Numbered from the stretch's first letter, positions 694 to 24,000 are shown. The stretch: 24,000 nucleotides of DNA from Photobacterium sp. JCM 19050 (GCA_001310455.1 BAXG01000025.1:22676-46675), one strand, 5' to 3'. The notes: generated by a model from the letters alone, not told the origin. Translations and numbers: made by a program.

Positions 694-1080
694 ATGAGTG
701 ACGCCCCCAATGCCATGCAAACCCATGGCGCCCCAAGCTGGATTCAGCACAACAGCGAAAACCCGGATGAAGCCCGGCGCTTCTACCAAGAAGTGCTCGG
801 CTGGAATGTGGAAGATATCCCCATGAAAGCCGGAGGCACTTACCCGGTAATTAAGGTTGGTGATACGCCGGTTGGCGGGTTTAATCCGGTTCCGGAATCT
901 GAACCCGGCTGGCTTAACTACATTACGGTCGAAAGTGTTGACGACTGTGTTGCCCGGGCCAAAGGGTTGTCAGCTAAGGTGCTCAAACCTTGTGACGATT
1001 ATCCGGGCGTGGGGCGCATTGCCGTAATTCAGGATCCGCTTGGTGCTGTGATCGCGTTAATTACGTACGAACAGTCTTAA
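694..1080 (+). CDS. VOC (glyoxalase/bleomycin-resistance fold) family protein
   Basis: Small ~128 aa protein with a VOC-like pattern (EARRFYQEVLGW...GRIAVIQDPLGAVIALI). AAGGAG at 682-687 sits 6 nt before the ATG at 694, so the ATG at 688 from the ORF track is too close to the SD. Confidence 0.6.
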   Translation: MSDAPNAMQTHGAPSWIQHNSENPDEARRFYQEVLGWNVEDIPMKAGGTYPVIKVGDTPVGGFNPVPESEPGWLNYITVESVDDCVARAKGLSAKVLKPCDDYPGVGRIAVIQDPLGAVIALITYEQS

Positions 1081-1254
1081 TTCAATAGCTTTAATCCGCC
1101 ATTTGCCCGGGCTTTCTACCTGATGGGGTGAAGTCTGGGCCCTTTTACGTTCCGTTTTTTCTAATAAAACAAACTGGATAAAGAATGGGACGCTGGCCGG
1201 ATTACCGCCCCACTATAGTGAAATAACAGGGAGTAATTTACTCAGGAGAACAGG

Positions 1255-1605
1255 ATGAAATATGCATTGCTGATATACGGAAGCGAACAGTTTGTCTCTG
1301 AAATGAGTGATGAAGAAGGGAAAAAGATGCTTGAAATGCACCTTTCTACGCGTGGGAAAATGGAAGCCTCCGGGGAGTTTGTAGGCTCTGCCCGTCTTGA
1401 ACCCACGCACGATGCCATCACAGTCAGTGCAGATGAAGACGGCTACCCCTTGGTCACTGACGGCCCGTTTGCAGAAACCAAGGAACAGTTTCTTGGCTAC
1501 TACGTTGTGGAGTGTGAAACCATTGAAAAGGCAGCTGAATATGCGAAAGGGCTGCCGCTGAAAAATCACAAAGTGGAAGTACGTCCGATTGGCTGGTGTC
1601 TGTAG
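1255..1605 (+). CDS. YciI-family (DGPF domain) protein
   Basis: 116 aa, begins MKYALLIYG and contains the DGPF motif (LVTDGPFAETKEQFLGYYVVEC). AGGAG lies 6 nt upstream of the ATG. Its stop is immediately followed by the sigma factor start. Confidence 0.8.
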   Translation: MKYALLIYGSEQFVSEMSDEEGKKMLEMHLSTRGKMEASGEFVGSARLEPTHDAITVSADEDGYPLVTDGPFAETKEQFLGYYVVECETIEKAAEYAKGLPLKNHKVEVRPIGWCL

Positions 1606-1606
1606 G

Positions 1607-2833
1607 ATGGTGGGTTCTGAGCAAATCGGAGACATTCTGGCGCACTCCAGACCCCGGTTGATTGGTACGCTTTACCGTCATCTCGGTGATTTTTCTCTTG
1701 CGGAAGATGTCTGGCAGGAAGCTGCGCTCAAGGCTTTTTCCCAATGGTCGGAGAATGGTTTACCCGATCATCCCGACGCCTGGCTGCTGACTGTTGCCCG
1801 GCACCGCGCAATAGATATATTTCGTCGCGAAAGCCGGATGGTCACCCTTGATGAGAGTGATGAATGGAAGCTGCCGGCAACGGAAAGCAGCGATGAGGCA
1901 GCCATTTACCGTGATGATATCCTCCGTTTGATGTTTATCTGCAGCCATGAGTCTTTGACAGCAGAGCAACAGGTATTGCTCGCCCTGAATGCGATTGCCG
2001 GCTTTCCTTCCCAGACGTTGGCCCGTGCGTTTATGACGTCGCATGCTGCGATGGAAAAGCGTCTGAGCAGGCTTAAAAATGCAGCATTTCAATCGGGCGC
2101 ACAATGGGATGCCCCCTTTTTGGACTCGCGTAGGCAAGGGGCGGTGAAAACGATGTTGTACCTGATGTTCAATGAGGGGTACGGCGGCGTAGAGAGCGAG
2201 CAGGCGATTAAAATTCGCATTTGTGAACAGGCGATTGATCTTATTCGCCTGCTTAACACCCTTTGTCCAGAGCGCCCGGAAACGCAGGGCTTGCTTGCGC
2301 TTTGCCTTTTTAGTCACAGCCGCCGTCATGCCCGGTTAGATCAGAATGGTTGTTTGGTGTCACTGGACAAACAGGATCGCAGCTTGTGGGATGGGGCAAT
2401 GATCTCGGAAGCTCACTCTCTGGTCCAACATGCCCTTACCCAAAGCCAGCCTGGGTACTACTTGTTGCAAGCCTGTATTTCAGGCATTCATGCTACGGCC
2501 CCATCGGCAGAACTGACTGATTGGAAAGAGATTCTTTTATTATACGATTTGATGGAAGTGCGTTATCCGTCACCGGTGGTTTCATTAAACCGCTCGGTGG
2601 CCTTGGCGCATGTTGCTGGCCCAGAACGTGCCTTACCTTTGGTTACGGGGTTGGCCACTAAATTAAAGAACTACCCATATTATTATTCGACATTAGGTCA
2701 CTTGTATCAGATGAATGGTGATTTAAATAGTGCTAAAAATGCATTTTTATCCGCAAGGGAAGTAGCTGTGAATAAAAAGGAAATTAATTACCTGGACATG
2801 GAAATAAATAAAATCAAAAACTCTGTCATATAA
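1607..2833 (+). CDS. ECF-type RNA polymerase sigma factor with a long C-terminal (TPR-like) extension, ECF42-like
   Basis: Sigma-70 region 2 (DVWQEAALKAF...AWLLTVARHRAIDIFRRE) and region 4 (LTAEQQVLLALNAIAGFPSQTLARAFMTSHAAMEKRLSRLK), followed by ~220 aa more. Pairing with a DGPF/YciI gene is the known ECF42 context. The ATG at 1607 directly follows the YciI stop; the track's TTG at 1589 is an alternative start. Confidence 0.75.
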   Translation: MVGSEQIGDILAHSRPRLIGTLYRHLGDFSLAEDVWQEAALKAFSQWSENGLPDHPDAWLLTVARHRAIDIFRRESRMVTLDESDEWKLPATESSDEAAIYRDDILRLMFICSHESLTAEQQVLLALNAIAGFPSQTLARAFMTSHAAMEKRLSRLKNAAFQSGAQWDAPFLDSRRQGAVKTMLYLMFNEGYGGVESEQAIKIRICEQAIDLIRLLNTLCPERPETQGLLALCLFSHSRRHARLDQNGCLVSLDKQDRSLWDGAMISEAHSLVQHALTQSQPGYYLLQACISGIHATAPSAELTDWKEILLLYDLMEVRYPSPVVSLNRSVALAHVAGPERALPLVTGLATKLKNYPYYYSTLGHLYQMNGDLNSAKNAFLSAREVAVNKKEINYLDMEINKIKNSVI

Positions 2834-2877
2834 TGGAATTTATTTCATATGCAATTCAATATTATGTTTTCTTTAAA

Positions 2878-2898
2878 AAACACGAGTTCTTCGTGTTT
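2878..2898 (+). terminator. stem-loop downstream of the sigma factor gene (possible terminator, could work in both directions)
   Basis: AAACACGA (2878-2885) pairs with TCGTGTTT (2891-2898) around loop GTTCT. A6 lies upstream, and the T-tract forms part of the stem. Confidence 0.35.
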
Positions 2899-2983
2899 CA
2901 ATTTATCCATGCAAAAAGTAAGGGTTTGTAATTTTTGGAGATAAGTTGACCATGTGGATATGCGCGTAATGATATGAAATAGA

Positions 2984-3009
2984 TACAAAAATGCCGGAAA
3001 TATTCCGGC
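2984..3009 (-). terminator. rho-independent terminator on the minus strand, about 300 nt downstream of the MCP stop
   Basis: GCCGGAA (2993-2999) pairs with TTCCGGC (3003-3009) around a 3-nt loop. On the minus strand it is followed by ATTTTTGT. Confidence 0.5.
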
Positions 3010-3304
3010 AAACGGATAGGTGAGCCACATATGCGCTCTTAAAAAACGTAATTAAATCGAATTACAGTCGGATTATAATCCTAAATTCAAGTTTGACTGT
3101 TTCAGATTTAAAACACTAGAAGAAAAAGAATCTGACTGTCTTGTTTTTCTGATGTTTTATTTATTCTTTGCTTAAGAAAATATATAAGCCACCTGATTGT
3201 TTAATATCTTAATTTTGATGTCAGCATAAATTTAGCTTTCGTCAATCAAAGTGAATGTAAAGTTGCGTAAATACGAGTCGCAATTATCTTGGTTTTCCTT
3301 CGTT

Positions 3305-6231
3305 TTAAATACTGGGCCAGTACGTGCCGTCATCCTCGTCGAAGGATTTGACCTGACCGGGAGATGATGTTTGAAGAGTGTTTACGGCAGACGACTTATT
3401 CCTGCGTTTTTTCTTACTGCTTTTATCTGATTTAGAGATGCCTTTGTTGCCCTTGTCACCTTTGATGACAAAGAAACGCACGATTTCGCTCATGTCTTCC
3501 GCCTGGGCCAGCATTGTTTCGCTGGCTGTGGTGGCTTGTTGTACCAGCGCGGCATTTTGTTGTGTCATGGCATCCATACGGGCGATCACTTCATTGACCT
3601 GTTCGATACCGACACTTTGCTCCTGTGCGGCACTGGAGATTTCGAACATTTTTTTCTGCACTTCTTCCACGGTATTCACGATTTCTGTCAGCGTTGTTCC
3701 AGACTCATTCACCAAAGATGCTCCCCCTTCCACTTTCAGGTTGCTGTCTTCGATCAGGTCTTTAATTTGTTTGGCTGCTGACGCTGACCGCTGGGCAAGG
3801 TTGCGGACTTCCCCTGCTACGACAGCAAACCCCCTGCCTTGCTCACCGGCTCGGGCCGCTTCGACTGCGGCGTTAAGGGCAAGAAGGTTGGTTTGGAAAG
3901 CAATTTCATCAATCACGCTGATGATATTGGATATTTTGGCGCTGGCCGTACTGATATCTTCCATCGCATTGATGGTTCGCGAAATCACCTCGCCGCCTTC
4001 GCGGGCTTTGATGCTGGCAGCTTCGCTGAGCGAGTTTGCGGAAAGCGCGTTTTCCGCGCTTTGCCGCACGGTACCCGTCATTTCTTCCATGTTTGACGAT
4101 GTTTGTTGCAGCGCAGCTGACTGCGCCTCAGTTCTTTCACTGAGGTCCCGATTTCCGGCAGCAATTTCGTTAGATGAATTGGTCACGGTGGAGGCATTTT
4201 CGCGGATAATGGCGACAACTTCAGTGAGGCGATCGCATGTGCTGTTGGCATCGTCTTTGAGCTGACCCAACCGCCCTTTGTAATCACGTTTTATTCGCTT
4301 GGTCAGGTCACCGCGGGCCATGGCACTGAATATTCGCTGCATGTCGATAACGGCTTCTTCGATGGTAGAAGACAGGTTGTTCAGTCCGGTGGTCAGGGTC
4401 AGGAAGAAGCCTTCTTTGCCCGCGACTGACACCCGTTTGGAGAAATCGCCCTGACCGGCGGATTCAATAACCTGATCGATTTCTCTCTGGATCCCCACTT
4501 CTGCGGTGCGATCCGTCCACTCCACGACCGTACCCAACCTTTCGCCTTTTTTGTTGAGGATTGGGTTGCAGTGAGGCCCATGATAAGGCTGCCAACTTCG
4601 AATTCCGTATAATGTGTATCGGTCAGTTGGCTGAGGATTTCCCGCTGTTTTTCTGGTCTTTGGTGGAAGAGGTCAACGGATTGACCGAGGATATTTGCCG
4701 CATCAAAACCCGGTATCATTTCGGAAAAGTCATCACAAGACTCCTCCATCATATTCAGGGATGCCCGGTTGAGGTAGATAATTTTATGGTCCGCATCGGC
4801 GATCATGGTGTTGGTGGAAACATTGTCGAGCGCTTGCCTTACCCGGGCATTTTCTTCTGCAATCAACTTGGATTTTTCTTCCGTTTCTTTTTTGTTCTGC
4901 TCAATACGTTCCACGTTTTCGAGTGAGGTGTTAGTGGCTTCCTTGATATCGAGCAGGTCACCCCGGAGTTCGGCATCAATTCTCTGGCTGAAATCTCCTT
5001 TTGCCAGGCTTTCCATGACCTTTTTGATTTCTTCTACCGCAGTTTGGGTGGCTTCCATCAGCGTGTTGACTGCCTGCGCAGACTGACCGATTTCGTCTGA
5101 GCTGCGAACGTTAACCCTGACGCTGTAATCCCCTTCCTTGACGGCTCTTAACAGGTTTCGGGTGAGATCAGTGATGGGTACTGTAACGGAACGGGTAAAG
5201 AGAACGGCGATGACAATAACAGCGATGACGGCGATGGCGATAACCATACCAATTTGCTGCCTGAGTGTTGCACCGGGGCAAAGGCTTCTGCTTCATTGAC
5301 CTGGGCGATGAGCGCCCATGAGTAGTTGCCAAAGCGGACCGGCGTGTAGGCCGACAATACCTTAGTGCCAAGGTAATCGGTGATCACGGCGTCACCGGTT
5401 TCCCCCTTTATCGCGGCGTTGGATGCGTCAGTATCGACGGAGCCATCAGACGGCGACACAAAAGACGCCAGTACAGAATGGCTGTCCGGTGACCGGAAAG
5501 AATCCGAACGCATCAGTTGTCCGGGCCGACCAGATAGGTTTCTCCGGTGCTGCCCATCCCGGTACGCTTCGACATGATGGTATTGATGGCGTTCAATGAA
5601 AGTCGGAGTACCGCGACAGCTTCGATTTCGCCTGCAAGGTTACTGACAGGTGCGGCAACAAACGCAGCAGGCTCACCATCCAGTTCTATATACCGTGAAA
5701 AGTCCTGAACCTCAGTCCGGTTGCTGTCCAGCACTTTACGCCAAATCTGGGCAAGGCCACTTTCAATAAAGTCAGCGTGGTTGAGGTTGACACCAAGGTC
5801 ATCATTGCGTGTTGCCGTATAAATAACGTGCCCGTGGTCGGCGGTGATGATGTACAGATCCTCGTAGCCGTATACATTGACATAATCGAGCAGGTTATCA
5901 CCGCCATTCCATATTTCGTCATACCTGGCAGTGTCTGTAAAAAAGGCGTCATCACTTAAGATTTCTTCATCGTTTTCATAAAACTTAAGTAGCCGGCGCA
6001 TTTTTTTACATCCTCACTGCCGGCAAGGATTCGGATGTCATTGAACGCCCGGTTGAAGTAGCCATCAATCTGACTTTTCTTTACTTCCCGCATACTGACA
6101 AGCTGGGCAAATGCCTGGTCTTTAAGTGAGGCACTGGATTGTGAGAGGGAAATTTGCCCGATAAAGAGGACGGGAACCAAACCGACAATCAGGAAGATAA
6201 GTAGCAGCTTGGCGCGAATTTTCAGGGTCAT
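3305..6231 (-). pseudogene. methyl-accepting chemotaxis protein (TM, dCache-like sensor, TM, HAMP, PAS, HAMP-like repeats, MA signalling domain), with the frame broken by 4 single-base deletions (pseudogene or assembly error)
   Basis: Five consecutive minus-strand ORFs (6231-5956, 6001-5513, 5513-5148, 5247-4399, 4537-3305) join into one ~976 aa protein. It starts at MTLKIRAKLLLIFLIVGLVPVLF (ATG at 6231). It carries the MA signature EIAFQTNLLALNAAVEAARAGEQGRGFAVVAGEVRNLAQRSA, a second TM (MVIAIAVIAVIVIAVLF) and a PAS-like segment (NTMIADADHKIIYLNRASLNMMEE). Each junction shifts the frame by exactly one deleted base. Confidence 0.9.
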
Positions 6232-6446
6232 AGTTGCCTGCTCCGTTGCCTGAAAGTGACTGTACCGGGCGCTAGCTTCACCAAATGTGCAGAGCAGCCT
6301 CCTGCCGACGGATGTCAGGCGAGGTGCCTTATTTGGCACATGTGAAACTTTTTTAATACATGCAGTTTTCAGTGTAGGAAAGATTCGCAGATGTGCTTTC
6401 CGGGTTACAGGATCCGCAAAAACAGAGAGATAGGAAATCCGTGACC

Positions 6447-6474
6447 TTGACAGGTGGTAAATTTTAGTAAAAAT
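6447..6474 (+). promoter_or_regulatory. candidate sigma-70 promoter for ebgR
   Basis: Perfect -35 TTGACA (6447-6452), a 16-nt spacer, then AAAAAT (6469-6474; TAAAAAT from 6468), about 100 nt upstream of the ebgR ATG. Pattern match only. Confidence 0.3.
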
Positions 6475-6573
6475 CGCTAGAGTGATTTTGAGTTTTACCA
6501 AGGATTTCTTTAAGGGAATAGACCGCCCGGATGGCTTTCACCAAGAAAAGGCGCTAAAGGGTTTGGAGGATAA

Positions 6574-7571
<998 letters not shown>

Positions 7572-7590
7572 AGCTTTGCTCAACCAACCC

Positions 7591-7616
7591 GCCCGCCATT
7601 TGAGCGGGCTTTTTTT
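7591..7616 (+). terminator. rho-independent terminator after ebgR
   Basis: GCCCGC (7591-7596) pairs with GCGGGC (7604-7609) around loop CATTTGA, followed by T7 (7610-7616). Confidence 0.75.
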
Positions 7617-7849
7617 GTTTCAGGCGTCATAGTTCCCCCTCTCATTGGCTTCATTCTGTTCCCCTCTTCGTTATCCGAAAGCTATAACACGTTCTGAATG
7701 TGCTTGTTTTAACTGATTTTATTGAATTTTACCTTTATTGAAAAACATGATGGTGATCGCCTAAATTCAGGCGAATCCGGGTGTATTTTGCCGAGAGCTT
7801 CACAGGTTAAAACAAGGCCATGTGATCAAGTTAAAAAAGCAAAATTTAA

Positions 7850-11472
<3,623 letters not shown>

Positions 11473-11479
11473 AGCCCTT

Positions 11480-11501
11480 GGTGCCGGTTAACGCCGGTAC
11501 C
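11480..11501 (+). other. intercistronic stem-loop between ebgC and the permease gene (no U-tract)
   Basis: GGTGCCGG (11480-11487) pairs with CCGGTACC (11494-11501), including one G-U pair, around loop TTAACG. No T-run follows, so it is probably not a full terminator. Confidence 0.25.
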
Positions 11502-11508
11502 TGATTAA

Positions 11509-13019
<1,511 letters not shown>

Positions 13020-13048
13020 TAAACCCGATAGTTGTTACCCCCAACGTT

Positions 13049-13073
13049 AAGTCCGCTCCGGCGGACTTTTTTT
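13049..13073 (+). terminator. rho-independent terminator after the permease gene, between convergent genes
   Basis: AAGTCCGC (13049-13056) pairs with GCGGACTT (13061-13068) around loop TCCG, running into T7 (13067-13073). Confidence 0.75.
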
Positions 13074-13109
13074 GTTGACGTGTAAGTTGGAGAGGATGGT
13101 ATAAAACAT

Positions 13110-14053
13110 TCATACCTTGGTCTGGACCGGTTCGATAAGTTTTACGCCGTGCCAGAAAAGATAAAGCGTCAGTACGTAAGGTGCGGTAAAGGAGGGCAAC
13201 CCATCCGGTGCCATCAACACATTGATAGATCCCTGCAAGATCACTGTAGTAATGACGGCGATCAGGGTGAATCCCATGCTTCTGGCTGACGCTTGGTAAA
13301 CACGGCGCCAAAGGCAACGGCTGTCAGTACAGGACTGAACCCGTACAAACCGGTACTGACTAAATCCGGTTTCCCGCCCAGAAACAGTGCGACCACGATG
13401 GCAACCACTGAACCGACGCAGGCCGCAACCCCCACTCGCCATGAGCCGATCAGCATTCCCATCAAAACGATGATTCCGCAGACATCTGGTGATAACAGAA
13501 AAACCTGTCCGATGTTTTTAAAGAAGATGCCAGCCAGTTCACCGAGATGGGGATGATGGTAGCACCCGATGTGTAATCCGTGGGAAGTAATGGTTTGGGA
13601 AACATGTCGATATTGAGATGGCCGAAATTGTAAACCGACACCATAAACAGCCATCCACAAAGTACGAAAGGCCGGTAGATGCAGGGATGCCCCAGGTTTT
13701 GGTGAGTGTCTGGTTAAAGGCTCGCTGGACGAAAACGGTCATTACCGCTCCGACAGATACCAACAGCCACAACTCTGCTGATGACGTGACGAAGGTCGGT
13801 AAGACAGCTCCCATCAAAAGCCCGTTGAAGCCATAGAGCCGGCCTTGATTTTGGTTTCATCAATATTCAGTAACTTAGCGGTGGCTGTGGAAATGGAAAC
13901 CCCCAGCAAAGCGCCGATACTGGAAAGCCAATTTCCTGAAAAATAAGACGCATAAAGCATTGCGACCATGAAAAATAAGCCGGTAAGTGAATTTTCAATA
14001 AAGAAAACCTGGCTGTATCCCCGTAAACACTGAACTAAGAAATTATCTCGCAT
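13110..14053 (-). pseudogene. urea transporter (UT) family protein, with the frame broken by 4 single-base deletions (pseudogene or assembly error)
   Basis: Five minus-strand ORF pieces join into ~315 aa: MRDNFLVQCLRGYSQVFFIENSLTGLFFMV...AG|LYGFNGLLMGAVLPTFV...TWGIPASTG|PFVLCGWLFMVSVYNF...ELAGIFFKNIGQVFLLSPDVCGIIVLMGMLIGSW...TGLYGFSPVLTAVAFGAVF|YQASARSMGFTLIAV.... The duplicated (Y/I)xQVF(F/L) and GLYGF motifs are typical of the UT family. Confidence 0.75.
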
Positions 14054-14556
14054 TATAAAATTGCCACGTCGTATTAAATATAAAGGTGAAGGAAGAATGG
14101 GCTTTCCTATTTAAAAGGGAAAACCAACTATCTCTCTTCAAAGTGTTTTTGTGGGTTTTTATATTAAAATCATAAAATTACGTCGTTCATTGAATGGCGA
14201 GAAATACGCATGAGTGACGATCATATTATTTGTGAGATGCATGATCAAATTTGAGTTAAACAGACTGAGTTAAGTAGGTTTATTTTACATTGATGAATAT
14301 TTCTAATTGCCTTTTTAATGTTAATCAATAATCAATGGGGAATTAATTAATGATAATTGTAAAATAAAGGTGTTAATAACAACGACTGAATGAAACACCG
14401 GTGTCTATGAACGCAACGCATTGGTGCTTTGCGATTTCATCAACACTGAAACCTGAAGAGCATCACTTTTGGGGTGGGATTTGAAATCGTTTCCAATCGG
14501 GTTGAAACAGAAGTTCTATAGTGATCACAAAAAGGTACAAATATTCTATTTTAATC

Positions 14557-14584
14557 TTGTTGTGAAACATTAATTTCATATAGT
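14557..14584 (+). promoter_or_regulatory. candidate iolD promoter with an operator-like palindrome filling the spacer
   Basis: -35 TTGTTG (14557-14562), palindrome TGAAA-CATTAA-TTTCA (14563-14578), -10 TATAGT (14579-14584), about 80 nt upstream of the iolD ATG. The iolC promoter has the same layout. Confidence 0.45.
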
Positions 14585-14662
14585 GGCTGAAAAGAAGCGT
14601 GGAGCGGATCGACACTTTTTGAGCCGCACCTGATAGGACATAGCGTATTTCGGAGTTTGGAT

Positions 14663-16597
14663 ATGGGTACACTCAAACTGACCACGGCACAGGCATTGGT
14701 GAAGTTCCTGAATCAACAGTATGTGGATGTTGACGGGCAGGAACATAAATTTGTCCACGGCGTATTGACGATATTTGGTCACGGTAATGTTGTTGGCCTG
14801 GGGCAAGCCCTGGAACAGGATGCCGGGGACTTGATCGTCCACCAGGGCTGTAATGAACAGGGTATGGCACATATCGCCATGGGATTTGCCAAACAACAAA
14901 AACGGAAAAAGATTTATGCGGTAACGTCTTCCGTCGGACCCGGTGCGGCGAACATGGTGACTGCCGCTGCGACAGCAACCGCCAACCGGATTCCTGTCCT
15001 GTTCCTGCCGGGTGATCTCTTTGCATCCCGCCAGCCGGACCCCGTGTTGCAGCAAGTCGAGCAATATCATGACTGCTCAATCAGTACCAACGACTGCTTC
15101 CGTCCGGTCTCACGCTATTGGGATCGTGTTTCCCGCCCTGAGCAATTGATGACGGCGATGATTAACGCCATGCGCGTACTGACCGACCCGGCAGATACCG
15201 GCGCAGTGACTATTTGCCTGCCGCAGGATGTGCAGGGTGAAGCCTACGACTTCCCGGAATATTTCTTTAAAAAACGCGTCCACCGTATAGAGCGTCGTCC
15301 GGCGACAGAAGCCATGCTGGCTGATGCGGTTGAACTGATTCGCCGCAAGAAAAAGCCGATGCTGGTGTGCGGCGGTGGTGTCCGGTATTCCGAAGCCCAT
15401 GATGCATTCCGGCAATTTGCTGAAACTTTCAATATTCCGTTTGGGGAAACTCAGGCCGGGAAGAGTGCCATTGTGGCGGAACATCCCCTCAACTGCGGCG
15501 GGGTAGGGACAACCGGTTGTCTGGCAGCCAACCTGATTGCCAAGGAAGCGGATCTGGTGATTGGCGTGGGTACCCGCTTTACGGATTTCACAACCGCATC
15601 CAAGTCGTTGTTCCAGAACCCGGATGTGGAATTCCTCACCATTAATGTGGCCGAATTTGATGCCTTCAAACTCGATGCCGTCCCTGTGGTGGCAGATGCG
15701 CGCGCTGCGCTGGAAGCGTTGTCAGAAAAACTGCAGGCAACGGGATACCATAGCGGTTACGGCAACGAGATAGTTGATGCCAGAAGTGCCTGGAATGCTG
15801 AGCTTGAGCGCCTTTTCAGTATTCGGGTCGATGACGGTTTTGTACCGGAAGTGCCGGGCCATCTGGATGACAAATTGGGTGAGTATGCCGCAACCCTTTC
15901 TACCCAACTTGCGCAGACGCGGGTGCTTGGGGTGATGGATAAATACCTCGAAGATGATGCCATTGTGGTTGGGGCGGCCGGGTCATTGCCGGGAGATCTG
16001 CAGCGAGTATGGCGACCGAAAACACCGGACACTTACCATATGGAATACGGCTATTCCTGCATGGGCTATGAGGTTGCCGCTGCTGTGGGTGCCAAGCTCG
16101 CCCGCCCGGATCAGCCCGTTTATGCTATGTTGGGTGACGGCTCATACATGATGCTTCATTCCGAGTTGCAAACCGCAGTTCAGGAAGGCACTAAAATTAC
16201 GCTTCTGCTGTTTGATAACGCAAGCTTTGGCTGTATCAACAACCTGCAAATGAGTCAGGGTATGGGAAGTTACGGTACGGAAAACCGCCACCGCGATCCG
16301 GAAACTGGCAAGATGACCGGCCCGTTAGTGAAGGTCGATTTTGCCAAAAACGCAGAAAGCTATGGCTGTAAGGCTTATTCCGTCCACACGGAAGAAGAAC
16401 TGGTCGCCGCGCTGGAAGAGGCAAAACTGCAAGCCGGTCCGGTGTTGATTGACATCAAAGTGTTGCCCAAAACGATGACTCACGGTTATGAGGCGTGGTG
16501 GCGCACCGGTACTGCACAGGTGGCAGACAAGCCGGAAATTGTGGCTGCTGCTGAGGGTATTAAGCAGGTGCTTGCTACCAAGGCTCGCCAGTACTGA
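14663..16597 (+). CDS. iolD: 3D-(3,5/4)-trihydroxycyclohexane-1,2-dione acylhydrolase (decyclizing) IolD
   Basis: [25 protein letters not shown]...[18 protein letters not shown]...[15 protein letters not shown]...[14 protein letters not shown]...[11 protein letters not shown]...GCINNLQM...[14 protein letters not shown] is colinear with B. subtilis IolD as recalled; it is a ThDP-dependent enzyme. GGAG at 14652-14655 supports the ATG at 14663 over the track's TTG at 14657. Confidence 0.92.
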
Positions 16598-16613
16598 TAC
16601 ATTTTTACCGAGT

Positions 16614-16642
16614 GGGGGCAGCTTTCAGGCTGCTCCCTTTTC
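16614..16642 (+). terminator. rho-independent terminator after iolD
   Basis: GGGGGCAGC (16614-16622) pairs with GCTGCTCCC (16629-37), including one G-U pair, around loop TTTCAG, followed by TTTTC. Confidence 0.7.
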
Positions 16643-16746
16643 GGTCTGTTCCTTTGGCTGCTCGCCACTTGCTTCTTTCTTCAATCTTTCCTCTTTTCTC
16701 TTCCGTCATCTCTATGTGTTTGCGTGTTTGTCCTCTGCCATCGGAA

Positions 16747-16767
16747 TGAAACGAAATATTTGTTTCA
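16747..16767 (+). promoter_or_regulatory. additional copy of the GAAA-N6-TTTC palindrome (possible auxiliary operator)
   Basis: TGAAACGAAA-TATTTG-TTTCA. The core CGAAA-N6-TTTCA lies at 16752-16767, about 400 nt upstream of iolG. Confidence 0.3.
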
Positions 16768-16970
16768 CTTTATGTTGCAGATGATGTTTACGCAAATTGC
16801 ATCGAATAGTCCTGAGGTTTGAGCAATTTATCGAGTTTTCATACTCGTTTAACCCCAGTTATTTCTGATGGTTATGCCTGCCTCGACTCGGATGTATTTC
16901 GTGATCGCAGTGACAGGATTTGCTGTCTTCCGGTCAAAAAATGATACCCTTGCGACAAAAATAAAATATT

Positions 16971-17013
16971 CATTTCATAGCATATATGAAATGTACGTTT
17001 CACTTGATATATT
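16971..17013 (+). promoter_or_regulatory. candidate iolG promoter/operator region
   Basis: Perfect 9-bp inverted repeat CATTTCATA (16971-16979) / TATGAAATG (16985-16993). It overlaps TGAAA-TGTACG-TTTCA (16987-17002), which is followed by the -10-like TATATT (17008-17013). Confidence 0.4.
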
Positions 17014-17163
17014 CCCGTCATCGATTAGGTAATTGATTAATCCTGTTCGAAAAATCCTGTCAACTCGGTTGAATTCTGTTTGTGGAAAACCCCTGAAGTG
17101 TTTCCGATAAATGGGGGAGTCCAGAAACTTCTGCCGGCTAAGAGCCGGTTCCAAGGAGCCCTT

Positions 17164-18150
17164 ATGTACAATATCGCATTGTTTGGTGCAGGCCGTATCG
17201 GCCAGGTTCATGCGGTTAACATCGCTGAACACAAGGAAACTTCTCTCTATTCCGTGATTGACCCGTACCAGGAAGGTGCAAATTCACTGGCAGAAAAATA
17301 TGGCGCTAAGGTTCAGTCTGTGCAGGAAGCAATGGCTGACCCGAATGTTCATGGCGTGCTGATCGCGTCAGCTACTGACACCCATGCAGAGCTGATTGAG
17401 ATGGCCGCCAAAGCCGGCAAAACCATTTTCTGTGAAAAGCCGGTCCACCTGGATATTGAGCGAGTCCGTGAATGCCTGGCGACCGTGAAGGAGTACAACG
17501 TCCCGCTGTTTGTGGGCTTTAACCGCCGTTATGACCCGCAGTTCCGCAAAGTGCGTGAGATGCTGAGCGCCGGAGCCATCGGCCAGGCAGAATCGCTGAT
17601 TATCACCTCCCGCGATCCGTCTCCACCGCCTGCTAACTATGTGAAAGTCTCCGGTGGCATGTTCCGCGACATGACCATCCACGATTTCGACATGGCACGT
17701 TTCATTATGGGCGAGGATCCTGTCTCTGTGTATGCACAGGGCAGCAACATGGTTGACCCTGAAATCGGCCAGGCCGGTGACATTGATACCGCCTTTATCG
17801 TGATGAAATTCCCATCCGGCGCGATGGCGACCATTTCCAACAGCCGCCGCTCCGGTTATGGATATGACCAGCGTATCGAGTTGCATGGTGCCAAAGGTCT
17901 TCTCACGGCGAAAAACATGCTCGAAGATCAGGTAGAGAAATGGGGTGAAGCCGGATGTGTTGCCGCGAAACCGGAGCACTTCTTCCTGCAGCGCTACAAC
18001 GCTGCCTACAAGGCTGAGTGGAACCACTTTGTTGATGTGCTGGCAGGCCGTGCAGCACCAGAGTGCAGCGGTTATGACGGCGAACAGGCACTCCGCCTGG
18101 CTGACATGGCCTTTGAATCACTCGCCACGGGCAAAGAAATCAAACTGTAA
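17164..18150 (+). CDS. iolG: myo-inositol 2-dehydrogenase (Gfo/Idh/MocA family), IolG/IdhA
   Basis: MYNIALFGAGRIGQVHAVNI...ASATDTHAELIEMAAKAGKTIFCEKPVHLD...FVGFNRRYDPQF resembles rhizobial IdhA/IolG. AAGGAG at 17152-17157 supports the ATG at 17164; the track's 17080 start adds an implausible leader. Confidence 0.85.
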   Translation: MYNIALFGAGRIGQVHAVNIAEHKETSLYSVIDPYQEGANSLAEKYGAKVQSVQEAMADPNVHGVLIASATDTHAELIEMAAKAGKTIFCEKPVHLDIERVRECLATVKEYNVPLFVGFNRRYDPQFRKVREMLSAGAIGQAESLIITSRDPSPPPANYVKVSGGMFRDMTIHDFDMARFIMGEDPVSVYAQGSNMVDPEIGQAGDIDTAFIVMKFPSGAMATISNSRRSGYGYDQRIELHGAKGLLTAKNMLEDQVEKWGEAGCVAAKPEHFFLQRYNAAYKAEWNHFVDVLAGRAAPECSGYDGEQALRLADMAFESLATGKEIKL

Positions 18151-18164
18151 TCTTCCGTCATTTT

Positions 18165-18193
18165 GGAGCGGCAACCCGCCGCTCCGCTTTTTT
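18165..18193 (+). terminator. rho-independent terminator after iolG
   Basis: GGAGCGGC (18165-18172) pairs with GCCGCTCC (18178-18185) around loop AACCC, followed by GCTTTTTTC. Confidence 0.75.
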
Positions 18194-18279
18194 CTGACGA
18201 GTTTCAAATCCAATCTTTCCGGAAACGGGGTTACTCCCGTTGCCGCAAGCATGATGCAAACGAAAATCAGGAGGACGTT

Positions 18280-19978
18280 ATGCTGGCGTTTATTTCGTTT
18301 CTCGGCTTTACCCTGTTTGTTGCAGGCTTTGCGTATTACAAAACCAAAAATGCTCACCTGACTGATTCTGCTGAAGGTTATTTCCTTGGCGGACGCTCGC
18401 TGACCGGCGTGTATATCGGTGGTTCCATGCTGCTGATGAACCTTTCCACTGAACACCTGGTTGGCTTGAATGGCTTGTCTTTCCGCACCGGGTTTATCGT
18501 GATGGCGTGGGAAGTGATGGCAGCGATGGCCATTGTGCTGTTTGCAATTTTCTTTCTGCCCCGCTACCTCAAGCTCGGTATCTCCACTATCCCCGAGTAT
18601 CTTGAAAAGCGCTTTGACAAGCAGACCCTGACCATTACATCCATTCTGTTCCTTGGTATGTACGTTATCTCCCTTCTGCCATCGTGCTTTATACCGGTGC
18701 GATTGCACTGGAAAGCCTGTTCCAGGTGTCCGACGTGTTTAATGTCGACAAGACGACCGCGCTTTGGATCATGGTGTGGGGCGTGGGTGGACTGGGTGCC
18801 ATTTATGCGGTCTTTGGCGGTATTAAGGCAATTGCGGTGGCAGATACCATCAACGGTGTCGGTCTGATTACCGGTGGCCTGATGGTAACGCTGTTCGCCC
18901 TGGCTACGTGGGTGATGGCAATATTTTGAGTGGTTTGACGGAAGTCTACCAACACAACCCGGAGAAGTTTAACTCCATTGGTGATGAAGACTCGCTGGTG
19001 CCGTTTTCAACCTTGTTTACCGGCCTTGTTGTTTCCAACCTGTTCTTCTGGTGTACCAACCAGTCGATTGTGCAAAAAGCACTGGGTGCGAAGAACCTTG
19101 CAGAAGGCCAGAAAGGCGTACTACTGTGTGCCTTCTTCAAACTGGTTATCCCGACCATCATCATCCTGCCGGGCATCATTGCTTTCCATATTTTCCAGGG
19201 TCAGATCGATAACCCGGACAATGCCTACCCGATGCTGGTAGAGCTTGTGCTGCCGGAAATGCTGGTTGGTTTCTTTGCAGCGGTTGTCGTGGGGGCGGTG
19301 TTCTCTACCTTCAGTGGCGGCCTGAACTCCTCTGTCACGCTGTTTACCGTCAACATCTTCAAAAAGAGCCTCAAGCCGGATGCAACAGAAGCCCAGACGG
19401 TGGCGCTGGGTAAATACCTCGGCCTTGGCCTTGCGGTGGTGTCGATGATTGTCGCCCCGCTGGTGGCAAATGCGCCGGACGGCCTTTTCTACCTCATCCA
19501 ACAGCTTCAGGGCATCTTCAACGCCCCCATTCTGAGTGTGGTGATGGTGGGCCTGCTTACTAAACGTGTTCCCGCCATTGCTGCCAAGCTTGGCCTGTTG
19601 TTCGGTATGTCAGCCTATATCCTGTTTAACTTTGTGGTGAAAGTGGATATCCATTTCTTCCACCTCGTTGGCTTGCTGTTTGCCGGTAACATCGTCTTTA
19701 TGTTGGTTGTCGGGTATTTCTTTCCGCAAGAGGCCTACGAAGAGGTGTATACCGAGCAGGTGGATATCAAGCCTTGGTCAATGGTCAAGCCGGTTTCCCT
19801 GCTTATCGCGCTGGGTTCCGTCTCCATGTACGTCTATCTGGCGCATAACGTACCGGGCTGGGTGATGACCGGCTACTATGTGTTTGCCGTTGCGTCCCTG
19901 GCTTATGTGTTCTGGTCTATTGGACGTGAATTGATGAATAGCCCGCGTGCGTCAATGCGCACACAAAAACAAGGCTAA
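18280..19978 (+). pseudogene. SGLT-type sodium:solute symporter family (SSS) protein, likely myo-inositol or sugar uptake, with 2 single-base deletions
   Basis: Three ORFs join: MLAFISFLGFTLFV...YFLGGRSLTG...TIPEYLEKRFDKQ...YVISLLPS|VLYTGAIALESLF...VFGGIKAIAVADTINGV...LFALAT|VGDGNILSGL...FFWCTNQSIVQKALGAKNLAEGQKGVLLCAFFKLVIP.... This resembles Vibrio vSGLT as recalled. AGGAGG at 18268-18273 supports the ATG at 18280. The inositol substrate is inferred from context only. Confidence 0.8.
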
Positions 19979-19990
19979 AAGTTGGAAAAT

Positions 19991-20021
19991 AAACGCCCCG
20001 GTAACGGTACCGGGGCGTTTT
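19991..20021 (+). terminator. rho-independent terminator after the symporter gene
   Basis: Perfect 13-bp stem: AAACGCCCCGGTA (19991-20003) pairs with TACCGGGGCGTTT (20008-20020) around loop ACGG. A-tract and T-tract flank it, so it could work in both directions. Confidence 0.8.
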
Positions 20022-20036
20022 ATGGCTGGATGTACG

Positions 20037-22037
20037 ATGGATCAGTCTCTTCTTCCCAATATCTTTGATTTCCTTTCCCGCACCGACCCCTTTGATACGC
20101 TCTCCCCTGAAGAAAGGGAAAAGCTGGCGGCATCGGTGGATATTTCCTATCTGGCTCAGGGTGACAAACTGGATGGAAGCCGAATTGTCGGTACCGGTTT
20201 ATATATGGTGCGTACCGGCGCGGTTGAACAACGCTATCCGGACGGTGCGCTCCGCGCTCGCCTCGGTAGCGGAGATCTGTTCGGGTTCAGCCAGATGCAC
20301 CGCCACGGCGAGTGCGAATACGCACTGGTCGCACTTGAGAATACGCTGCTGTACCTGATTCCCCGGCAGGTGCTGGACAGGTTGATTGCCGAGAACCCGG
20401 CGGTCAGCCACTACTTTGCCGCCACAGAAGGCGTGCGTCTGGCAAGCAGCAAGCAAAATGATATCTGGGGTGGGAACAACAGCCTCTACCTCAGTACCGT
20501 AGGCAGCACGTTAAACCGGACTGTGGTCAGGGTGACACCGGATATGTTAATCCGCGAAGCTGCGCAGGAGATGGTGCGGCTTCACCGTTCAAGTGCGCTG
20601 GTCATGGACGGGGATACCCTGGTCGGCATTGTGACCGACAGGGACATGACCAAGCGCGTGGTGGCAGAAGGCCTGGATATCAGCCTGCCGGTTTCTTCTG
20701 TCATGACGGAAATGCCGGTTGCCATTGACAGCGAAGCCCCTCTTATCCGGGCCGTTGAACAGATGATGCAGCACAACGTGCGCAGTTTGCCGGTCTTGGA
20801 AAACGGTAAAGTGGCGGGTGTGATGACCGCAACCAGCCTCGTCCAGAAAAGCCAGATCCAGGCGGTTTACCTGATTAGCCGTATCTACCGGCAGGAAAGC
20901 ATTGCTGACCTGAAAATACTGGCAGTGCAGCGCCAGTCAGTTTACGAAACGCTGGTAGAAAATGGCGTTCATCCCCGAACTGTCTTGCAGATGATGACGC
21001 TGATTGCAGACGCCTTTAACAAGCGCCTTTTACAGCTTGGCGAGCGGGAGCTTGGCAGCCCGCCTTGTGATTACGCCTGGATAGTGGCGGGGTCCCATGC
21101 CCGGAATGAAATGCACTGCCTTTCGGACCAGGACAGTGGCATCGTGCTCGGGTGCGAGCCGGATGAGCACCAGAGAAGGTATTTTCAGGCACTGGCTGAA
21201 TTTGTCTGCAATGGCATGGATGAGTGTGGTTATCCACTGTGTACCGGCCACATGATGGCAACCCATTCTAAGTGGTGTAATTCCCTGCAAGGTTGGCAGA
21301 GTCATTACCGGGAATGGGTGATGCAGCCGGAGGCGGAAAGCCTGCTCAACATCAGCGTGTTCCTTGATACCCGTTTTCTCTATGGCAATGAGAAACTGGC
21401 TGAGATGCTAAGAGCGACGGTTCAACAATACACCCGGGACAACCGCCGCTTTCTTGCGGTACTGGTGGCAAACTCCCTTCGAGTAAACCCGCCATTGGGT
21501 ATGTTCCGGCAGTTTGTCCTGGCAAAAGACGGCGAGAACCGGAACGTTTTCAACATCAAAAAACAGGCGATAAACCTGTTGGTAGAGCTCGCCCGAATTT
21601 ACGCTCTGGCAGCGAACAGCGGTGAAACCGGAACAGAAGAGCGGCTTGATGCCGCGGCCGCAGCCGGGGTGATCAGCGAGGAAAGCCGCAAGGAGCTTAC
21701 CGAGGCATTCCACTTTATCTGCCAGGTGCGTTTCCACCACCAACGAAGCGCAATCGGGCGAGGGGAGGTGGCGTCAAACAATATCGTCCCGGCCTGGCTG
21801 ACCCAGTTTGAGCGAAACCACCTGAAGGATGCATTCCGGATTATTGCCCGAACCCAGGAAGCTGCAATGCAGCGTTTCAGTGCCGAGGGGTGCTTAGATG
21901 ATCGGCAGGCTCCGTACAGCGCTTGCGGGCCGTCATCCATTGGCAAAGTTGGAAAAACAGCGGAAGCAACTGCTCGAAAAAGGCCAGGTGCCGGCACCGT
22001 TGTTACCCCTTTACCAAATGCCGGTCCCCCAGGCTGA
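20037..22037 (+). CDS. cyclic-nucleotide-binding / tandem CBS / DUF294 putative nucleotidyltransferase protein; the 3' end is possibly frameshifted, with a native stop perhaps at 21899-21901
   Basis: N-terminal cNMP-binding-like region (GTGLYMVRTGAVEQRYPDG...GDLFGF), a CBS pair (ALVMDGDTLVGIVTDRDM..., VRSLPVLENGKVAGVMTATSL) and an NTase core (YAWIVAGSHARNEMHCLSDQDSGIV) with a substrate-binding tail. The ATG at 20037 lies after the upstream terminator, and the track's 19947 start reads through it. As written, the ORF overlaps the next gene by 140 nt. Confidence 0.75.
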   Translation: MDQSLLPNIFDFLSRTDPFDTLSPEEREKLAASVDISYLAQGDKLDGSRIVGTGLYMVRTGAVEQRYPDGALRARLGSGDLFGFSQMHRHGECEYALVALENTLLYLIPRQVLDRLIAENPAVSHYFAATEGVRLASSKQNDIWGGNNSLYLSTVGSTLNRTVVRVTPDMLIREAAQEMVRLHRSSALVMDGDTLVGIVTDRDMTKRVVAEGLDISLPVSSVMTEMPVAIDSEAPLIRAVEQMMQHNVRSLPVLENGKVAGVMTATSLVQKSQIQAVYLISRIYRQESIADLKILAVQRQSVYETLVENGVHPRTVLQMMTLIADAFNKRLLQLGERELGSPPCDYAWIVAGSHARNEMHCLSDQDSGIVLGCEPDEHQRRYFQALAEFVCNGMDECGYPLCTGHMMATHSKWCNSLQGWQSHYREWVMQPEAESLLNISVFLDTRFLYGNEKLAEMLRATVQQYTRDNRRFLAVLVANSLRVNPPLGMFRQFVLAKDGENRNVFNIKKQAINLLVELARIYALAANSGETGTEERLDAAAAAGVISEESRKELTEAFHFICQVRFHHQRSAIGRGEVASNNIVPAWLTQFERNHLKDAFRIIARTQEAAMQRFSAEGCLDDRQAPYSACGPSSIGKVGKTAEATARKRPGAGTVVTPLPNAGPPG

Positions 22038-22632
22038 TGCCCGTTGGGAAACGCTGTCTTTTCTGGTGCTGGATTTTGAAACCTCCGGGTTGGATCCGGC
22101 CAATGACCGGATTCTTTCAATAGGACATGTCAGCGTTGAAAACAGTGTGCTGAAACTGTCCTCTGCAAAACATATCTATGTTGATGGCGGCGTTGAGGTC
22201 AGCCCGGAGGCGGCTGTTATCAATCATATTACGCCGCAAAACCTCGCCGGAGGTTGTTCAGATCAGGAAGGGATTTCGTATCTGGTCAGGCAAATGGCCG
22301 GGAAAGTTGTTATTGCCCATGGCAGTGCCATTGAGCGGGGCTTTTTGCATCAGGCGCTTGGTATCTATATCGACTTCCCGTTGCCTGTGGTCTGGCTTGA
22401 TACGCTGATGCTGGAAAGATCGCTGGCGGTTAACCGGGGATGCAGTAAAAAAGATTTCCGGCTTTGCACCTTGCGGGAGCAAAAAGGGTTGCCGGCATAC
22501 CATGCCCACAATGCCCTGGTCGATGCCGTTGCTACCGGAGAGCTGTTTCTGGTATTGGTTCGGGAAATTTTTGGCCGGGAAAAACCGATACTGGGGCCAC
22601 TTTTTATCCGTTCATGTTACGGGAGACCATGA
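21898..22632 (+). CDS. DEDDh-type 3'-5' exonuclease (DnaQ / DNA polymerase III epsilon-like domain)
   Basis: Exo I motif LVLDFETSGLD, Exo II-like VVIAHGSAIERGFL and Exo III HAHNALVDAVATGELF. The start lies in an ATGA context typical of translational coupling to the upstream gene. Confidence 0.8.
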   Translation: MIGRLRTALAGRHPLAKLEKQRKQLLEKGQVPAPLLPLYQMPVPQADARWETLSFLVLDFETSGLDPANDRILSIGHVSVENSVLKLSSAKHIYVDGGVEVSPEAAVINHITPQNLAGGCSDQEGISYLVRQMAGKVVIAHGSAIERGFLHQALGIYIDFPLPVVWLDTLMLERSLAVNRGCSKKDFRLCTLREQKGLPAYHAHNALVDAVATGELFLVLVREIFGREKPILGPLFIRSCYGRP

Positions 22633-22843
22633 AACAGGCATTTCAAAAAGTGGCGTCATTGAGCTTGGTTTGGGTGATGCGAACCCGGGATTTTTGCGTA
22701 GGTAAATGTGTTCTGGCCTGCGATAAAGTTCATTCGGTCATGCCTTCAACTCACGGTTTTTACCGGTGTTTTCACTTCCTGCTTCGTCATTACAGCTGAA
22801 ACCCCGTAGTGATCACGAAATGAAATAAATGAACTGATTTCAA

Positions 22844-22872
22844 TTGTATGTGAAATATATATTTCGTATAAA
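22844..22872 (+). promoter_or_regulatory. candidate iolC promoter with an operator-like palindrome filling the spacer
   Basis: -35 TTGTAT (22844-22849), then G plus TGAAA-TATATA-TTTCG (22851-22866; GAAATATATATTTC is a perfect 14-bp palindrome), then -10 TATAAA (22867-22872). This lies about 190 nt upstream of the iolC ATG. Confidence 0.45.
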
Positions 22873-23059
22873 GATTGCATATTCAGACGGGGAAGCATTT
22901 CCCCGGTATGTGTCCCGGCTACCCCAATCACCGGGAATGGGTTGAACAACGCCAGATTCAGTCATTTCGGCACTATATTCAAAGTATTCGACACAAAACG
23001 GTGTTTGCATTCCGTGAGTAGCCTTCCCATCACTGTTGGATGTTTCAAGGAGTTTATCA

Positions 23060-24000
23060 ATGGGCAGTGAAAAGCAGTTTGATGTGATTTGTATGGGCAG
23101 AATCGCCGTCGATCTCTATGGACAGCAGATTGGTTCCCGTCTTGAGGATATGGGCAGCTTTGCCAAATACCTCGGGGGGTCATCAGGCAACGTGGCTTAC
23201 GGTACAGCCCGCCAGGGGCTGAAATCCTCCATGCTTGCCCGGGTGGGGGATGAACATATGGGACGCTTCTTGCGCGAGGAGCTGGTCAATGTCGGCTGTG
23301 ATACCAGCCACTTGATCACCGACACAGAACGCCTGACAGGCCTGGTGATTCTGGGCATCAAGGATGAGGACACCTTCCCGCTGATTTTCTACCGTGACAA
23401 CTGCGCTGATATGGCGATCACGCGGGAAGACTTTACGGAAGACTATATTGCATCGGCGCGTTGCCTGGCGATTACCGGTACCCACCTTTCCCACCCCAAA
23501 CCCGCGATGCGGTGCTGACAGCCTTGGAATATGCCCGTCGTAACGGGGTGAAAACGGCCATTGATATTGACTACCGCCCGGTGCTTTGGGGCTTGACGTC
23601 TCTGGGGGACGGAGAAACGCGCTTTATTGAATCCGGCCAGGTGACGGAACAGCTACAGGAAGTGCTTGGCTTGTTTGACCTGATTGTGGGGACCGAAGAG
23701 GAATTCCATATTGCAGGTGGCTCGACGGACACGATCGAATCCCTCCGAAAAGTGCGGGAGCTGACAGGTGCAGAGCTGGTTTGCAAGCGAGGTTCGTTGG
23801 GGTGCAGTGTCTTTACCGGAGACATTCCGGATACCTGGATGAGGGGATTACCGTTAAAGGTGTGCGGGTGGAAGTGCTGAACGTCCTTGGCGCGGGAGAT
23901 GCTTTTATGTCCGGCCTGCTGCGCGGTTACCTAAACGGGGAAGGCTGGGAAAAAGCCTGTGCTTATGCCAACGCCTGTGGTGCGTTGGTGGTGTCACGCC
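23060..24000 (+). pseudogene. iolC: 5-dehydro-2-deoxygluconokinase IolC (PfkB family), with 2 single-base deletions; the 3' end lies outside the window
   Basis: MGSEKQFDVICMGRIAVDLYGQQIGSRLEDMGSFAKYLGGSSGNVAYG...ITGTHLSHPK|TRDAVLTALEYARRNGVKTAIDIDYRPVLWG...GDIPDTW|DEGITVKGVRVEVLNVLGAGDAFMSGLLRGYL... The EYAR..DxDYRP and GAGDAF motifs match IolC / PfkB kinases. AAGGAG at 23047-23052 precedes the ATG at 23060. Confidence 0.85.

Follow-up and report, generated by a model that had tools for sequence, protein, structure and literature searches.

The 24-kb stretch of DNA analyzed here, called the window below (BAXG01000025.1, positions 22676-46675, Photobacterium sp. JCM 19050; G+C content about 50%), carries eight genes that are split by frame breaks in the deposited sequence. 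These genes encode a long chemoreceptor of the methyl-accepting chemotaxis protein (MCP) type, the LacI-family regulator EbgR, EbgA, a ygjI-like amino-acid permease, a urea transporter, and three members of an inositol cluster, namely a solute:sodium symporter, a cNMP-binding/CBS/DUF294 protein (DUF294 hereafter) and IolC. Specifically, a table of open reading frames (ORFs) and views of the reading frames reveal 16 breaks, each of which is a -1 shift (Table 1). The frame index falls by 1 at every break on the plus strand and rises by 1 at every break on the minus strand, such that the MCP pieces run through minus-strand frames 0, 1, 2, 0 and 1, and ebgR passes from plus-strand frame 1 to frame 0. 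The runs affected are short, comprising one to seven identical bases each in the window, and all are one base under their inferred length. Has this organism lost the genes, or has its assembly lost the bases?

Table 1. Genes of the window and the frame breaks located in them. Runs are written as base and length (T7, seven consecutive T); a slash marks the junction between two pieces of a protein. Logan and TLL-SE01 are the comparison sequences described in the text.
Feature	Window position	Strand	State or run in window	Comparison or remark
MCP gene (long chemoreceptor)	3305-6235	-	5 pieces, 4 one-base losses	
MCP break 1	6001-6007		T7	T8 in Logan; T absent after position 6000
MCP break 2	5516		G1, exact missing base ambiguous	GETYLVGPDN/LMRSD; Logan gene table splits here too
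MCP break 3	5268-5269		T2	T3 in Logan
MCP break 4	4563-4565		G3, inferred G4	GLTAT/PILNKKGERLGTVVEW; present in both assemblies
ebgR (LacI family)	6574-7571	+	2 pieces	
ebgR break	6831		C1	CC in TLL-SE01; break also in Logan (gene table 92 + 233 aa)
ebgA	7919-11032	+	C-terminal ~30 codons out of frame	
ebgA break	10939-10940		G2	G3 in Logan and TLL-SE01
ygjI-like amino-acid permease gene	11578-13019	+	2 pieces	follows ebgR-ebgA-ebgC
Permease break	12590-12591		G2	G3 in TLL-SE01; break also in Logan (346 + 133 aa)
Urea transporter gene (UT family)	13110-14053	-	5 pieces, 4 one-base losses	
Urea transporter break 1	13838		G1	GG in Logan
Urea transporter break 2	13670-13671		G2	G3 in Logan
Urea transporter break 3	13549-13552		G4	G5 in Logan
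Urea transporter break 4	13298-13300		A3, inferred A4	GAVF/YQASARSMGFTL; present in both assemblies
Solute:sodium symporter gene (inositol-type SSS)	18280-19978	+	3 pieces	iol cluster
Symporter break 1	18679-18680		C2	C3 in TLL-SE01
Symporter break 2	18901		T1	TT in TLL-SE01; a substitution adjoins
cNMP-binding/CBS/DUF294 gene	20037-22037	+	last few codons out of frame	
DUF294 break	21883-21884		C2	C3 in Logan and TLL-SE01
iolC (5-dehydro-2-deoxygluconokinase)	23060-24000	+	two breaks	continues past window end
iolC break 1	23498-23500		A3	A4 in TLL-SE01
iolC break 2	23834-23835		C2	C3 in TLL-SE01
Inositol cluster				iolD, iolG, symporter, DUF294, RNase_T-like exonuclease, iolC
CCG-domain protein gene (end), glyoxalase-like gene, YCII gene, sigma-70/DUF6596 gene	left part			

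Two other sequences were compared with the window. The first is a second assembly of the same strain, the Logan re-assembly of run DRR017912, whose contigs DRR017912_259 and DRR017912_71 were found through exact look-ups of the EbgC and RNase_T-like proteins and cover window positions 1020-15487 and 19525-22940, respectively. Exact-protein look-ups for Logan contigs over 15.5-19.5 and 23-24 kb, made with iolG from the ATG at 17164, the first symporter piece from the ATG at 18280 and the first iolC piece from the ATG at 23060, gave no match. The second sequence, which serves as the independent reference, is chromosome 2 of the complete genome of Parasalinivibrio latis TLL-SE01, found by scanning species-representative genomes with the IolD protein (protein identity 99%). 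The source strain appears to belong to, or lie very near, P. latis (Vibrionaceae). Escherichia coli genomes and plasmids were also tried as references and were of no use, as only distant relatives matched.

Thirteen of the break sites are directly visible as one-base gaps when the window is aligned to another sequence. The other three (4563, 5516 and 13298) were placed from the reading frames together with collinear Pfam or PDB alignments of the repaired proteins. For break 4 of the urea transporter, the C3 run at 13273-13275 was considered as the site instead, and the repaired protein then scores 252.5 bits against the Pfam profile versus 254.4 bits with 13298-13300. The 'GGMFY' and 'GGIFF' motifs of solved urea transporters also favor the latter site.

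A preliminary description of this DNA, generated from the sequence alone, had listed 15-16 single-base losses in short homopolymers, with the DUF294 break as tentative. The number is 16, all are -1 shifts into the expected frames, and every repair restores a run of at least two bases. The DUF294 break is real, as the C3 run in both Logan and TLL-SE01 demonstrates, and its inclusion makes eight split genes. Most of the repair coordinates proposed at that stage are exact or lie within a few bases, whereas five point to a neighboring, wrong run. Thus the ebgA break lies at 10939-40 rather than 10954, the symporter breaks at 18679-80 and 18901 rather than 18685 and 18908, the second iolC break in the C2 run at 23834-5 rather than a G2 run at 23837-8, and the DUF294 break in the C2 run at 21883-4 rather than a G4 run at 21887-90.

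Adding one base at each of the 16 sites yields eight ORFs without internal stops, with lengths typical of their families. The repaired proteins include an MCP of 976 amino acids (aa) from its likely start, a permease of 480 aa, a symporter of 566 aa and a urea transporter of 315 aa. Repaired EbgR has 332 aa, exactly the length of its TLL-SE01 ortholog, and repaired ebgA encodes 1033 aa, with a stop codon that directly abuts the ebgC start. Similarly, repaired iolC is uninterrupted up to the window end, and the stop of the repaired DUF294 gene overlaps the start of the RNase_T-like gene in an ATGA sequence.

Profile and structure alignments run through the repaired junctions. In the repaired MCP, positions 19-239 of the 240-position dCache_1 profile align in a single stretch, and HAMP, HAMP_2, PAS_4 and MCPsignal are all present. 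HAMP and MCPsignal score above their cut-offs; the PAS_4 match at residues 469-579, which extends across break 4, is weak (E-value 0.0025, 18.5 bits, below the Pfam cut-off of 23.1 bits). The repaired urea transporter matches positions 3-288 of the 292-position PF03253 profile in one stretch with 254 bits, and its residues 8-303 align to two urea transporters of known structure (PDB 3k3f and 3me1). The repaired symporter is covered over 100% of its length by homologs of 565-566 aa at 88-89% identity, and none of the sequences retrieved with it was a near-identical fragment from this strain.

The ATGA overlap between DUF294 and the 244-aa RNase_T-like exonuclease (window 21883-21901) is also found in Logan and in TLL-SE01. 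The overlap of the stop codon of one gene with the start codon of the other suggests that translation of these two members of the iol cluster is coupled.

The breaks are far from random in direction and context. All 16 go in one direction (two-sided sign test, P = 3e-5), and this bias is not an ascertainment effect because insertions that break a frame are equally visible. All 16 also restore runs of at least two bases, a class of runs that accounts for only 48% of coding bases (P ~8e-6), and the same test restricted to the 13 directly observed sites gives P = 7e-5. The rate of loss per run is 0.13% for 2-mers, 0.85% for 3-mers, 1.7% for 4-mers and 1.6% for 5-mers, and the sole 8-mer is affected (1/1). 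Overall, the density is about one break per 1.3 kb of coding sequence.

The comparison of the two assemblies of this strain is the most direct evidence on the nature of the breaks. Over the 17.9 kb that they share, window and Logan differ by 0 substitutions and by 12 one-base differences, all of which are differences in run length. Contig DRR017912_259 aligns with 0 mismatches and 9 one-base gaps, the window being short at 6 of these and Logan at 3, and the alignment of contig DRR017912_71 contains 3 one-base gaps and again 0 mismatches, with the window short at 1 gap and Logan at 2. Consequently, the missing base is present in Logan at seven of the 12 covered breaks (5268, 6001, 10939, 13549, 13670, 13838 and 21883), all of them predicted in the preliminary description, and Logan is short at five other runs (1719, 2590, 5176, 19813 and 19996). 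At three of these five, the window ORF is intact (1719 and 2590 in the sigma factor gene, 5176 in the MCP gene), and at 19813 and 19996 the window agrees with TLL-SE01. Logan is thus short where the window is right, and both assemblies therefore err by deletion alone, such that neither of them is usable as truth. Such a pattern is typical of reads that are noisy in run length. When breaks differ between assemblies of the same strain, it is the data and not the genome in which run length varies. This evidence supports the earlier attribution of the breaks to assembly error rather than gene decay.

The five deletions peculiar to Logan have effects of the same kind as those in the window, in that they break the sigma-70/DUF6596 gene and the C-terminus of the symporter and introduce a fifth MCP break.

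The differences between assemblies might instead reflect heterogeneity within the culture, in which phase variation by slipped-strand mispairing generates two run lengths and each assembler picks one. Since the assemblies do disagree on the length of 12 runs, the reads must contain both alleles, and one tract, the T7/T8 tract close to the 5' end of the MCP gene, has a length at which slippage could occur. Phase-variable sites are typically simple tracts of at least seven bases that lie within the 5' part of a gene with a surface or regulatory role, or upstream of that part. Of the 16 runs, only the T7/T8 tract of the MCP gene fits this description; the true lengths of the remaining 15 are 2-5 bases, and they occur at scattered positions in the genes. 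Tract lengths that are known to phase-vary far exceed 2-5 bases, and yet 11 of the 12 discordant runs are of just this size. Moreover, the discordant runs occur at any gene position and in housekeeping-type genes such as those for EbgA, the urea transporter and the sigma factor. Twelve polymorphic indels in 18 kb without one single-nucleotide polymorphism (SNP) would also require an implausible population structure, and as real heterogeneity this combination is not biologically credible. We consider phase variation as the general cause extremely unlikely.

The TLL-SE01 genome permits the comparison to be extended to sites outside the Logan contigs. Over window positions 6435-13073 and 14479-24000, its DNA is 95.7-96.9% identical to that of the window, and the sole coding indels are eight one-base gains in TLL-SE01, at 6831, 10939, 12590, 18679, 18901, 21883, 23498 and 23834. 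Intergenic indels between the two sequences run in both directions, as in natural divergence. The six TLL-SE01 orthologs of broken genes are all intact, full length and in-frame, and the six repaired genes align to them from end to end, with neither a gap nor an internal stop. No insertion, nonsense codon or indel of more than one base was found in the coding sequences of these six genes after repair. The absence of insertions, multi-base indels and in-frame nonsense codons reported in the preliminary description therefore holds for the genes with an ortholog. That description had also stated that the same frameshifts in an independently sequenced relative would speak for real deletions, and none of the eight comparable ones occurs in TLL-SE01.

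Another way to reconcile broken frames with functional genes is recoding, by which programmed ribosomal frameshifting or transcriptional slippage would restore full-length proteins from genes that are truly out of frame. Apart from the presence of runs at the junctions, nothing points to such a process. The TLL-SE01 orthologs are simple in-frame ORFs at these positions, and the second assembly contradicts recoding as well. In addition, the junctions have no slippery motif in common, several of the runs comprise only 1-2 bases, and sixteen independent recoding sites in 20 kb would be without precedent. The chance that recoding explains the breaks is close to negligible.

A third alternative is genuine and recent pseudogenization. 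All 16 one-base deletions would then be real, having arisen, for example, after mismatch repair was lost or under host restriction of very recent date, and the functions lost by the organism would comprise inositol catabolism, ebg, a chemoreceptor and two or three transporters. Single-base indels in runs do build up in mismatch-repair mutators, and five of the breaks are common to both assemblies. A mutator, however, should yield transitions as well, and there are 0 substitutions versus 12 indels between the assemblies. Furthermore, the other assembly of the same strain lacks at least seven of the 16 breaks and has five deletions of its own, and the conspecific strain is intact at all eight comparable sites.

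Reductive decay leaves genes under relaxed selection and with lesions of several kinds, namely nonsense codons, insertion sequence (IS) insertions, larger deletions and indels in both directions. The window resembles the genomes of recently host-restricted bacteria undergoing such decay in that many neighboring genes carry frameshifts, but it differs from them by the lack of mixed lesions and of any sign of relaxed selection in its genes. The ratio of nonsynonymous to synonymous substitution rates (dN/dS) is 0.017-0.080 for the repaired broken genes and 0.061-0.227 for the intact neighbors ebgC, iolD, iolG and the exonuclease. By this measure the broken genes show no sign of relaxed selection, although the test has little power against very recent events. 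With dN/dS values of 0.02-0.08 and no nonsense codons, larger indels or insertions, wholesale gene loss is very improbable.

The frame-break pattern as a whole is thus very probably a sequencing or assembly artefact and not the result of gene loss. The sequencing chemistry would have under-called the lengths of homopolymer runs, and the assembler consensus would have retained the short calls, about once in every 1.3 kb of coding sequence. The 16 frame breaks would then be consensus errors of the deposited assembly, and all eight genes are most likely intact in the organism. Seven of the breaks are demonstrated errors. We infer that the remaining nine, five of which are common to both assemblies and four of which lie outside Logan, are errors of the same kind, and in run type and length they are indistinguishable from the demonstrated ones.

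Several observations weigh against this interpretation. The evidence consists of assembly consensus sequences, and the window and Logan assemblies presumably derive from one read set, so that they are not independent experiments. Five breaks are present in both assemblies (4563, 5516, 6831, 12590 and 13298), and another four are outside Logan coverage (18679, 18901, 23498 and 23834). The MCP and urea transporter genes have no conspecific reference at these places, such that breaks 4563, 5516 and 13298 rest on frames and family alignments. Finally, the true length of four of the affected runs is only two bases, less than is usual for classic homopolymer errors.

If both assemblies draw on a common read set, then systematic under-calls should be common to both. 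TLL-SE01 contradicts six of the nine breaks that Logan does not correct, but it cannot settle those six alone because it is a different strain. It is very improbable that a few of the nine remaining breaks are genuine, very recent frameshifts hidden among the sequencing errors; in that case, the T7/T8 tract of the MCP gene could also be a slipped-strand on/off switch.

What kind of data would produce these errors? The preliminary description attributed them to an unpolished long-read consensus, which is probably wrong. Logan assembles its contigs from 31-mers that occur two or more times. One-base errors are suspected at only ten places in the 14.8-kb Logan contig, of which five are shared with the window and five are not, and raw high-error long reads are unlikely because a k-mer contig of this length has so few indels. 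The affected runs are mostly 2-4 bases, which likewise makes long reads unlikely and fits flow chemistry better. We infer a flow-based platform (Ion PGM or 454) at modest coverage as a better fit than long reads. The DRR prefix indicates that the run was registered at DDBJ; a literature search for DRR017912 gave no match.

Precedents for such an error profile exist. The PacBio-only genome of Clostridium autoethanogenum contained homopolymer errors that were all deletions and that led to false frameshift annotations, as established by Illumina correction and Sanger confirmation (PMC4687164). Like that case, and like the flow-space errors of 454 and Ion Torrent data, the window has only missing run bases, genes that are split by them and rejoined by one-base corrections, and an error rate that rises with run length. 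Unlike in C. autoethanogenum, errors occur here about once per 1.3 kb of coding sequence versus about once per 18 kb, and in runs of mostly 2-4 bases versus mostly five or more (PMC4687164). This higher density and the shorter runs argue for low coverage and/or flow chemistry, and not for long reads.

A draft of comparable origin may be that of 'Photobacterium aphoticum' C119 (JCM 19237), which was produced with Ion PGM and Newbler 2.8 at 26x coverage and has 49.7% G+C and 6,976 coding sequences in 5.41 Mb (PMC4214989). In our judgement this number of coding sequences is high, as expected with fragmented genes. The window shares with such Ion PGM drafts of Japanese Vibrionaceae (PMC4214989) a run registered at DDBJ, a Vibrionaceae isolate as its source and a G+C content of about 50%, but a link to that class of drafts is no more than a lead, and identity of its source with C119 is a guess.

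The value of these findings is practical rather than biological, in that they serve as a warning about the annotation of this assembly and the protein entries derived from it. It would be wrong to describe the strain as having lost a chemoreceptor, urea transport, ebg regulation or inositol catabolism. Should the window be representative of the whole assembly, then the assembly's gene and pseudogene counts, its contribution to pan-genomes, any inferences of "gene loss" and the derived protein entries will be badly inflated. Run-length errors can be exposed cheaply and directly by re-assembling a run from k-mers and comparing the result with the deposited assembly.

Fragments created by the false frameshifts already stand as separate proteins in public collections. 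For example, the 92-aa N-terminal LacI piece of EbgR (window 6574-6852) is the sole member, and hence the representative, of its own cluster in a collection that combines NCBI and Logan proteins.

Several further features of the window are apparent from the comparisons. The places occupied by the MCP gene (window 3305-6435) and the urea transporter gene (13073-14479) have no TLL-SE01 counterpart there. The corresponding places in the TLL-SE01 locus (L003) are 2-1060 and 7844-9818. To the left of ebgR, TLL-SE01 has a gene for an SBP_bac_5 solute-binding protein, and between the permease gene and iolD it has a gene for a 520-aa PAS-MCP on the opposite strand. The two places look like strain-variable cargo slots beside the conserved ebg and iol blocks. 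In the intergenic region after ebgR, a T7 run (window 7604-7610) is seen in both window and Logan and is T6 in TLL-SE01, the only place where the window run is the longer. This difference is probably natural variation in a terminator-like U-tract.

The gene order ebgR-ebgA-ebgC-ygjI (window 6574-13019) matches that of E. coli. In megablast comparisons, the permease DNA is 78% identical to E. coli ygjI, and the stretch from ebgA to the permease gene is 79.5% identical to a Plesiomonas shigelloides plasmid. Because these identities are high for a comparison between Vibrionaceae and Enterobacterales, they suggest that the ebg block may have spread horizontally.

Near the left end of the window (1255-2833), the longest ORF for a protein with sigma-70 region 2, DUF6596 and TPR domains shares its first 17 bases with the YCII-family gene. 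This ORF comprises 414 aa from its first possible start codon, encodes an extracytoplasmic function (ECF)-like sigma factor paired with YCII, and is intact in the window.

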